This document shows, piece after piece, positions 22,462-23,176 of a stretch of 64,000 nt of DNA (position 1 is the stretch's first letter; each line of letters begins with the position of its first letter). A program made the translations under genes and the position numbers. This DNA is from Escherichia coli (GTDB taxonomy: Bacteria; Pseudomonadota; Gammaproteobacteria; Enterobacterales; Enterobacteriaceae). Under the pieces are notes generated by a model, which did not search any database, was not told the DNA's origin, and saw nothing but the letters and a program-made list of their open reading frames with translations. The stretch lies in the NCBI RefSeq assembly GCF_030013205.1, contig NZ_CP122648.1; one strand, 5' to 3'.

Positions 22462-22542
22462 AGCTGCCTCGATACTGTTGCTATCGTTGGTGGTTAGACG
22501 CCCTGCATGTGTGCCACCACTGCGGGGCGTTGTTGCTTGGTG

Positions 22543-22630
22543 CATCGCACCATTCGTTTTTAACCTATCAGCAAGTGAATCGCACTTCAAGCCTTTCTCT
22601 GAAATTTTTTTTGTGTATACTGAATCGCAC
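22543..22630. promoter_or_regulatory. Putative operator/promoter region: three copies of (G/C)ATCGCAC with a TATACT -10-like element
   Basis: gcatcgcac at 22543, gaatcgcac at 22577 and 22622; tatact at 22616-22621; lies between divergent ORFs. Confidence 0.4.
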
Positions 22631-22651
22631 CAACTTAGAGAGGATTCAGTA

Positions 22652-22831
22652 ATGGCAACAGGTTCAACAAATAATAAGTCGCAACAGTTAAATGCCAGAT
22701 TCCCGCATGATGTTGTTGCAGACTTAGAAAAAAATTTAGATGAAGGTGAAAGCAAGGCGCAATTTATAGTTACTGCCGTTAAAGGCGAGATCAAACGCCG
22801 CCAGCGCCGCAAGGCCAAAGAGCAGGAGTAA
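22652..22831 (+). CDS. Small ribbon-helix-helix-like protein (59 aa), candidate repressor or antitoxin
   Basis: AGAGAGGA SD 8 nt upstream of the ATG; RHH-like pattern ARFPHDVVADLEKNL...SKAQFIVTAVKGEI. Confidence 0.4.
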   Translation: MATGSTNNKSQQLNARFPHDVVADLEKNLDEGESKAQFIVTAVKGEIKRRQRRKAKEQE

Positions 22832-22873
22832 CCATCACCAGCGCCGTGGTGTGAGTAACTACGGCGCATTGCT

Positions 22874-23062
22874 ATGCAGGACAACACAATGACCGATAAA
22901 GAATTGACCAAAACATTATCACCGGCACGGAAAAGACGGCGCAGAAAGATAGAGCATGAATCAGAAAGATTCGCGCCATGTGCTTTTGCTCTTGAGAAAT
23001 TCCTTAAAGAGCACAGGAAAAAGCTCTCGTTGCAAACCTTGGAACGAACCAAATCTGACTGA
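22874..23062 (+). CDS. Hypothetical basic small protein (62 aa)
   Basis: ORF downstream of the RHH-like gene, same strand; Arg/Lys-rich. Confidence 0.3.
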   Translation: MQDNTMTDKELTKTLSPARKRRRRKIEHESERFAPCAFALEKFLKEHRKKLSLQTLERTKSD

Positions 23063-23176
23063 TCACATTGCCCACCAGCCGCAAATGTGGCATTGTTGGT
23101 GATGCGTTCAAGTTTAGTGTGTATCCATTGGCGACCGCCCCCGGTCGCCTTTGTTTTATATGTCATATGCTCCCCT

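Follow-up and report, generated by a model that had tools for sequence, protein, structure and literature searches.

A candidate ribbon-helix-helix repressor switch, nested in an eta-like open frame and accompanied by a predicted cis-antisense RNA, in an EcCICFT073-type island of Escherichia coli

What holds the replication genes of a phage-inducible chromosomal island (PICI) of Gram-negative bacteria silent? In the staphylococcal islands (SaPIs), a divergent repressor gene facing the replication operon keeps the island silent (PMC6092414). For the Gram-negative PICIs, the founding paper describes AlpA as an activator and states that the global repressor is unclear (PMC6092414), and the later PICI literature, as far as it could be searched, adds no repressor. 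An original prediction, made from the DNA letters of one E. coli island, proposed a divergent switch between alpA and the primase operon, with two small plus-strand genes, a set of operator repeats, and a resemblance to the stl/str switch of the staphylococcal islands. We followed up this prediction by computational comparison of the locus with its relatives.

The window, that is, the whole stretch of 64,000 nucleotides that was analyzed, carries an island of about 10 kb at 15.3 to 25.1 kb, flanked by clpS and cspD. The minus-strand genes of the island are, in order, int, alpA, an Icd-like gene, a 106-amino-acid (aa) open reading frame (ORF), DUF4222, primase, an 81-aa ORF, SSB, a ClpP-protease/major-capsid fusion, and DUF1441. 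In gene content and order the island agrees with the PICI EcCICFT073, from which it differs in cargo by carrying the protease-capsid fusion. The upstream gene of the leftward unit, alpA (positions 23177 to 23386, minus strand), encodes a 69-aa AlpA/Vis-type helix-turn-helix regulator. Its product matches PHROG 2790, "excisionase and transcriptional regulator," with an E value of 2.7e-17, and is named "helix-turn-helix transcriptional regulator" in RefSeq. The replication operon consists of the Icd-like gene (67 aa), the 106-aa ORF, DUF4222 (99 aa), and then primase, all on the minus strand and just as the original prediction had laid it out. Its first gene, the Icd-like/Kil-like ORF (22258 to 22461, minus strand), matches the NCBIfam model NF033153 (phage_ICD_like) with 70 bits against a cutoff of 25.

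Between alpA and this operon lie the two plus-strand ORFs, at 22652 to 22831 and at 22874 to 23062, where they had been predicted. They had been described as running opposite to everything else in the island. This is true of the annotated genes; across both ORFs, however, the minus strand too carries an open frame, to which we return below. EcCICFT073 carries an identical module of ylcI, ORF57, and the Icd-like gene in the same gene order, and the ylcI module was found in about 2000 of 5426 complete E. coli genomes. Along with the window and EcCICFT073, the set of 57 loci used in the comparisons that follow takes in 8 further islands of E. coli and 47 loci of other genera; more than 20 genera are represented.

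The first plus-strand ORF (ATG at 22652) encodes a protein of 59 aa that had been called ribbon-helix-helix (RHH)-like. It belongs to the YlcI/YnfO family, as judged by the NCBIfam model NF041551 (63.3 bits over residues 9 to 50, cutoff of 30), and RefSeq names it likewise; we propose it as the island repressor. No match was found in Pfam or among PDB sequences. Homologs with 50 to 94% identity are spread across the Enterobacterales, and a tblastn search against 50,697 phage records found nothing. The YlcI protein of E. coli K-12 is only 23% identical to the 59-aa protein and occurs in a different context, next to cos. A model of the monomer was weak (pLDDT of 67), with no meaningful Foldseek match. 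A tethered, single-chain dimer modeled from the alignment, however, came out as a confident strand-helix-helix dimer with paired N-terminal strands, and this fold matches that of Arc, with 26% identity in the structural alignment. The fold prediction that had been suggested as a check thus yields an RHH fold, a DNA-binding fold, for the 59-aa protein.

The intergenic region had been predicted to hold three copies of (G/C)ATCGCAC. The three ATCGCAC heptamers are present, starting at 22544, 22579, and 22624, but the preceding bases are C, A, and A, and the full repeat unit is an 11-bp sequence of the form GTG-N5-CAC. The three predicted operators are O1 (GTGCATCGCAC, 22540 to 22550), O2 (GTGAATCGCAC, 22575 to 22585), and O3 (CTGAATCGCAC, 22620 to 22630), with start-to-start spacings of 35 and 45 bp. 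The heptamer shows no overall enrichment in the window (10 occurrences versus 12 expected); its three same-strand copies are packed into 91 bp. A scan of the 64-kb window for the 11-mer with at most one mismatch gave a single further match and no operator near alpA, and the operator is essentially specific to the ylcI locus within the window.

That the repeat pattern is not a chance arrangement follows from the comparison set, in which the same three positions hold island-specific repeats in 57 related loci. In almost all of them, O2 precedes O3 by 45 bp. The equivalents of O1 lie 80 or 67 to 70 bp upstream of O3 and can take either orientation, and their center agrees with that of the other sites of the same island. 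In most operator classes, the left arm of O3 is CTG and not GTG, because these bases are shared with the TATACT box of the rightward promoter described below.

The strongest evidence for a link between the protein and the repeats comes from their joint variation. Throughout the 57 loci, the central 5 bp of the repeats are the same within an island and different between islands, and they covary with residues 11 to 15 and 17 in the β-strand of the RHH protein. Twenty β-strand classes map onto operator centers, and one class keeps one center across as many as 9 genera. The strand KSQQLNARFP goes with the operator GTGAATCGCAC (7 genera), KSQMTTVRIP with GTGAAATACAC (9 genera), and KSQQIVSRVP with GTGAATGCCAC. 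When operators were shuffled among 38 class-by-genus representatives, the observed agreement was reached in 0 of 10000 permutations; covariation of operator and protein in other genomes, which the original prediction had proposed to look for, is thus present. Unlike the RHH β-strand, AlpA, the Icd-like protein, and ORF62 do not covary with the operators in the 57 loci. The window and locus L009 have identical AlpA proteins and different operators, the window and locus L006 have identical ORF62 and near-identical Icd-like proteins and different operators, and the Morganella locus L011 has the operators of the window together with a very different Icd-like protein.

These comparisons provide strong indirect evidence that the RHH protein binds the three sites, and our confidence in RHH-operator recognition is good. 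RHH proteins such as CopG of pMV158 and omega of pSM19035, which acts on heptads, place one dimer on each short asymmetric repeat. We also observed an island of an O145 strain that has, at the equivalent place, an unrelated Arc-like RHH protein and palindromic GGTAATTACC sites.

The operators overlap a predicted pair of back-to-back promoters, which agrees with the idea of a divergent switch facing the replication operon. Both promoters were read from the comparative alignment; a generic promoter scan was unhelpful and returned only one unrelated site. The predicted rightward promoter, P_R, which would drive ylcI and ORF62, has as its -10 box the TATACT noted in the original prediction, at 22616 to 22621 (plus strand). 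Its predicted start is at about 22628, and a Shine-Dalgarno sequence, GAGAGG, follows at 22638 to 22643. No recognizable -35 box was seen for P_R, and nearly all loci have TATACT, TATAAT, or CATACT at the -10 position. O3 overlaps the last two bases of this -10 box and the predicted start.

The predicted leftward promoter, P_L (22562 to 22590, minus strand), has a -35 box TTGAAG at 22585 to 22590, a 17-bp spacer, a -10 box TAGGTT at 22562 to 22567, and a start at about 22555. Across the loci, a nearly invariant minus-strand TTGA(A/C/G)G box abuts O2 and is followed after a 17-bp spacer by a TAnnnT hexamer. TTGA is present in 44 to 47 of 49 distinct loci with fixed spacing, and the -10 hexamer of the same 49 loci has its T in 41, its A in 34, and its final T in 36; the -10 box of the window is weak. 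P_L is thus a prediction from consensus and conservation. O2 lies inside its 17-bp spacer, and O1 covers about +5 to +15. With two good sites at the target promoter and a weaker one at that of the repressor itself, the layout would be the one usual for a maintenance repressor.

The position of O3 admits a narrower interpretation, in which the RHH protein autoregulates only ylcI-ORF62, or is a Cro-like or accessory factor, and leftward expression depends on AlpA and read-through alone. The overlap of O3 with the P_R start and the weak P_L -10 box of the window would suit this, and the gene after alpA in EcCICFT073 needs AlpA for its expression (PMC6092414). For autoregulation, however, O3 alone would suffice, whereas O1 and O2 are situated at a distance from P_R, on the leftward TTGA-17-TAnnnT element, and keep a fixed geometry there across more than 20 genera. 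We consider this interpretation unlikely and retain a repressor of both promoters as the preferred one.

The second plus-strand ORF, ORF62 (22874 to 23062), encodes a small basic protein of 62 aa, for which RefSeq gives 57 aa starting from 22889 (Met6), and is probably cotranscribed with ylcI. Its sole match is PHROG 21027, of unknown function (E value of 1.9e-14). Homologs are confined to E. coli-type loci; their ERFAPCAFALEKFLKEY core is conserved, and their basic N terminus varies. The original prediction had raised the alternative that the two ORFs are a toxin-antitoxin-like addiction module; in such a pair the RHH protein would be the antitoxin and ORF62 a small toxin. Many antitoxins are indeed RHH proteins that autoregulate their operon, and the two ORFs are adjacent and co-oriented. 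However, none of the 47 loci outside E. coli has ORF62, while the RHH protein and the operators are kept there, and judging from these genomes it is dispensable for the RHH-operator unit in them. Neither an obligate pair nor a recognizable toxin family, the marks of a type II system, was found, ORF62 having no match to any NCBIfam or PADLOC family. The gap between the ORFs is 42 to 57 nt, the RHH protein is without a toxin-binding tail, and the operators lie on the divergent replication promoter. Because ORF62 is dispensable and matches no toxin or defense family, we rejected the toxin-antitoxin reading, which appears very improbable.

Downstream of ORF62, a predicted intrinsic terminator on the plus strand (23130 to 23157) has the form GGCGACCG-CCCC-CGGTCGCC followed by TTTGTTTT, with an 8-bp stem of which 7 pairs are GC, and lies just before the alpA stop. 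It would end the ylcI-ORF62 transcript. Read on the minus strand, the hairpin is not followed by a U tract, and leftward transcription should therefore pass through it.

What leftward transcription would encounter is the open frame mentioned above. This eta-like frame of 302 codons (22258 to 23166, minus strand) begins with an ATG 10 nt after the alpA TAA, with the Shine-Dalgarno sequence GGGGAG. Antisense to ORF62, ylcI, the operators, and the promoters, it continues to the Icd-like domain, which forms its in-frame end. It contains 0 stops, compared with 17 and 11 in the other two minus-strand frames. The frame is stop-free for 329 codons in the window, and base-composition shuffles gave a mean of 63 and a maximum of 219. 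One minus-strand frame through the operator region is open in 57 of 57 loci, with 92 to 568 codons (median of 279, compared with 21 for the next-longest frame). Its phase relative to ylcI is also constant in 57 of 57 loci, with coinciding third codon positions, and the whole of ylcI is covered by it in 56 of 57. Intergenic lengths vary between loci by multiples of three. In most loci, the first ATG lies 8 to 11 nt past the alpA stop with a Shine-Dalgarno sequence or overlaps the stop as TGATG; in a few, such as L006, the long frame and the Icd-like frame are separated. The O145 island with the unrelated RHH cassette likewise keeps an open frame of 333 codons, in an unchanged phase. By these computations, the open frame is conserved and coupled to alpA.

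Could the long frame, and not the plus-strand ORFs, be the real gene? The plus-strand ORFs would then be spurious, and the region would be the N-terminal part of a gene for a long minus-strand Eta/Bro-type protein, as might be argued from the open and conserved 302-codon frame and from the long "Icd-like" or "ash family" proteins that RefSeq sometimes annotates at related loci. We give this reading almost no credence. The RHH fold prediction is confident and the protein conserved, with substitution rates in ylcI that rise from the second to the first to the third codon position, and the protein covaries with the operators. For the ~213 N-terminal residues of the long ORF in the window, by contrast, no PHROG, NCBIfam, or Pfam family gave a match, and the intergenic part of the frame shows no 3-periodicity of the kind expected for coding sequence. 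The long ORF as a real domain protein is unsupported in the window outside its Icd-like part. Since the plus- and minus-strand frames share the wobble position, codon-position tests cannot show selection on the long-ORF product, and such a test of ORF62 against the long ORF was uninformative. Selection seems to act on the openness of the frame and not on its product.

The long frame also bears on whether P_L exists. The operators could be roadblocks or termination points for transcripts from alpA, with no P_L and with the RHH protein setting a threshold for read-through. In favor, the long frame and its coupling to alpA indicate leftward transcription that crosses the operators, and P_L is a prediction from consensus. 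However, the conservation of the TTGA box and of its 17-bp spacing to TAnnnT goes beyond what a roadblock needs, and the corresponding place in P4 is occupied by an internal constitutive promoter. Furthermore, the Icd-like ORF, although it makes up the in-frame end of the long ORF, keeps its own start codon and its own Shine-Dalgarno sequence (GAGG, 22467 to 22470). A pure roadblock is, in our estimate, quite improbable, and we continue with repression of P_L as the working interpretation.

The best-conserved part of the region extends from the Icd-like start to O1. Here we predict, on the plus strand, a cis-antisense RNA of ~80 nt (22460 to 22541) that lies opposite the start codon and Shine-Dalgarno sequence of the Icd-like ORF. 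RNAalifold, applied to 44 distinct sequences, gave three helices with 24 pairs, 97% of which are canonical. In the window, these are a helix at 22463-67/22490-94, a stem-loop at 22470-74/22482-86, and a terminator hairpin at 22497 to 22531 that is followed by a T-rich tail, UUGUUGCUU, in which the U tract is interrupted. Compensatory changes occur in 16 of the 24 pairs, a result matched in 0 of 500 shuffles, and slid controls reached a pairing of 37 to 41%. Pairing is 97.0% when read on the plus strand versus 81.3% on the minus strand, the alignment contains 168 G.U cells on the plus strand versus 3 A.C cells (which would be G.U on the minus strand), and the minimum free energy is -36.1 kcal/mol versus -24.6 kcal/mol. 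The pairing, the G.U excess, and the lower free energy together assign the structure to the plus strand. Computation on the aligned sequences thus supports a strand-specific RNA structure.

A putative promoter for this RNA was also found. Its -10 box is TATAAT at 22449 to 22454 (plus strand), in the extended form TGgTATAAT at 22446 to 22454. A TAnnnT hexamer whose last base falls exactly 4 or 10 nt ahead of the start-codon complement is present in 31 of 31 distinct loci, compared with 17 of 186 control windows, although this box lies inside conserved codons and its conservation may partly reflect protein coding. A covariance model built from the alignment has a single match in the window, with 70 bits, and also matches an island left out of its building; the segment has no Rfam family match. 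If expressed, the RNA would be expected to silence the Icd-like gene.

The arrangement most resembles that of P4. Both have a long ORF translationally coupled to the AlpA/Vis gene in front of it, a separately initiated Kil/Icd-like ORF as the C-terminal part of that long ORF, a primase operon downstream, and an immunity determinant, in the window a proposed one, embedded inside the long ORF. The eta frame of P4 has no stop between the end of vis and the end of kil, and its ATG overlaps the vis TGA. The Kil part of P4 and the Icd-like domain align at 30% identity. The window has two features of a P4-type leader, a long ORF beginning next to the alpA stop and an in-frame Kil/Icd-like ORF with its own start. 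Transcripts from the constitutive internal promoter of P4 are terminated by the CI RNA (Tommasini et al., PMC10111431). Only on transcripts from the upstream late promoter is eta translated, in coupling with the alpA homolog, and this translation prevents termination and overrides immunity (PMC10111431). The suggestion that the island has two control layers, one of them alpA, fits such a long ORF coupled to alpA.

P4 differs in that it has no YlcI homolog and no match to the antisense-RNA model. Conversely, no C4/CI or isrK element was detected in the window with Rfam models at E values up to 10, while the same models hit P4 and the islands L007 and L009 strongly. A P1/P4-type C4 RNA in the leader of the window was ruled out on this ground. 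L007 and L009 are related islands that combine a ylcI-type module with P4-type C4 and isrK elements. In the window, the immunity determinant would instead be an opposite-strand RHH protein with DNA operators, together with a cis-antisense RNA.

Parts of this circuit have counterparts elsewhere. The immI region of phage P22 (Arc, Mnt, Pant/Pmnt, and sar) uses small RHH repressors on back-to-back promoters and a short cis-antisense RNA over a ribosome-binding site, and the locus is predicted to share both features. It differs in that immI controls an antirepressor and not a replication operon and has no overlapping antisense long ORF, and at the sequence level we found no relationship of immI to the 59-aa protein (no hit to a PDB sequence and only the structural alignment given above). 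In pMV158, the RHH protein CopG and the antisense RNA II jointly control the replication gene repB. The likeness of the pMV158 and pSM19035 systems is that replication genes are placed under an RHH repressor and a cis-antisense RNA; unlike the island, these are plasmid copy-number circuits, with copG in the repB operon and with neither helper-phage input nor a nested long ORF.

Stl of the staphylococcal islands is not known to be an RHH protein. The resemblance to stl/str stands as a functional analogy, in that a divergent repressor gene faces the replication operon of a satellite, but not as family membership. The 59-aa protein has a predicted RHH fold and no Pfam, PDB, or PHROG match to Stl/Rpr-type repressors, and no homology was found. 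Stl is described as a master repressor relieved by a helper-phage protein, and SaPIs are without AlpA and without an antisense long ORF. An RHH repressor switch and a P4-like nested leader are thus known kinds of control, and their combination here is a variant. PICI papers describe a "Bro zone" with immunity RNAs; the RHH protein, the operators, the long frame, and the antisense RNA are not described in the PICI literature that we found. Literature searches on YlcI/YnfO, on PICIs with ribbon-helix-helix proteins, and on Icd-like proteins with antisense RNA returned nothing relevant.

Taken together, we think it reasonably probable that the region serves an EcCICFT073-type PICI as its switch for immunity and induction. 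In the quiescent state, P_R would express the 59-aa RHH protein, dimers of which would bind the three 11-bp GTG-N5-CAC operators. O2, in the P_L spacer, and O1, at the P_L start, would jointly shut off the Icd-like/primase replication operon, and O3, with its weaker left arm at the P_R start, would provide autoregulation. The predicted plus-strand RNA of ~80 nt would be made constitutively, pair with the ribosome-binding region of the Icd-like gene, and silence leaky transcripts from P_L. Upon induction, by analogy with eta and kil of P4, the helper phage would turn on alpA, and leftward transcription would proceed from the alpA promoter. Ribosomes would cross from alpA into the long frame that spans ORF62, ylcI, the operators, and the leader. 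Transcription and translation in this head-on direction would interfere with both P_R and the ylcI mRNA and displace the repressor, and their passage would open the leader structure, which would lead to expression of the Icd-like and replication genes. Points against this switch are that no operator was found near alpA in the window and that the published work on EcCICFT073 accounts for induction by AlpA alone. Our confidence in the anatomy of the locus is high; it is moderate for repression, the antisense RNA, and the override mechanism, and it is from the comparative evidence that we infer binding, repression, expression of the RNA, and override.

A bolder extension, which we offer tentatively and consider somewhat more apt to fail than to hold, is that YlcI-type RHH proteins are the missing master repressors of Gram-negative PICIs, with at least a dozen exchangeable specificities. 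The repressor gene would be locked, antisense and in codon phase, within a translated, alpA-coupled, eta-like frame, and the head-on transcripts would form a bistable toggle, joined by a new family of cis-antisense RNAs over the Icd/Kil start. If the toggle is true, helper phages would induce the islands by tipping it or by targeting the RHH protein directly.

The locus is a concrete candidate for the repressor of Gram-negative PICIs, and it is present in the model island EcCICFT073. With defined operators and at least a dozen specificity classes, the maintenance of these islands, the heteroimmunity of co-resident islands, and induction by helper phages become directly testable. The natural series of matched proteins and operators is a ready data set on the specificity of DNA recognition by RHH proteins, and the conserved sense/antisense overlap with a P4-like translated leader would illustrate with unusual clarity how selection can favor an open frame and not its product.

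A perfect 9-bp inverted repeat, TACTGAATC / GATTCAGTA, lies immediately upstream of ylcI, the plus-strand gene of a 59-aa ribbon-helix-helix (RHH) protein proposed to be the island repressor. Its arms (22618-22626 and 22643-22651) enclose the ylcI Shine-Dalgarno sequence and O3, the third predicted GTG-N5-CAC operator, and its outer TACTG...CAGTA is found again in most loci, independent of operator class.

The ylcI position is occupied differently in the island adjoining roxA in E. coli O145 RM8988-C1 (L010, 2175-2993). There we noticed an unannotated Arc-like RHH ORF (2320-2493), which is unrelated to ylcI, and a TATAGT box flanked by two GGTAATTACC palindromes. 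This island also has the predicted structured leader RNA motif seen in the window and a homologue of ORF62, the plus-strand ORF following ylcI, and its minus frame is open for 333 codons in the same phase as in window-type loci. On this evidence, the repressor cassette looks exchangeable.

In two other E. coli islands (L007, 1229-1427; L009, 1226-1427), the ylcI/operator module co-occurs with P4-type C4 (CI) RNA, isrK, and c4-a1b1 elements, all of which lie within a longer leftward ORF with matches to Ash/Bro-like proteins. Rfam also reported an int-alpA RNA between int and alpA in a Morganella island (L011, 6057-6125; 52 bits); within the window, no int-alpA match was found at E values up to 1. 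The cspD leader and gene (window 25337-25737) match the Rfam cspA thermoregulator family, with a score of 41.7 bits, under the gathering score of 78 bits.

Directly downstream of the primase gene, the sequence GGTGAACAG / CTGTTCACC is repeated about 10 times, in either orientation, within a cluster (window 19586-19817) that is probably the replication origin of the island. An Rfam microRNA match over this cluster is spurious. The cargo genes (window 16330-18243 and 15588-16160) encode a ClpP-like prohead protease/major-capsid fusion and a DUF1441 protein, whereas EcCICFT073, the model Gram-negative PICI, carries separate capsid and decoration genes.

The YlcI protein of E. coli K-12 is RHH-like and only distantly related to the window protein (23% identity). 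Its gene, in the DLP12 prophage (L061, 6252-6834), adjoins the prophage cos site and is divergent from nohD, and no triple GTG-N5-CAC sites were found at this locus. The YlcI family therefore occupies at least two genomic contexts.
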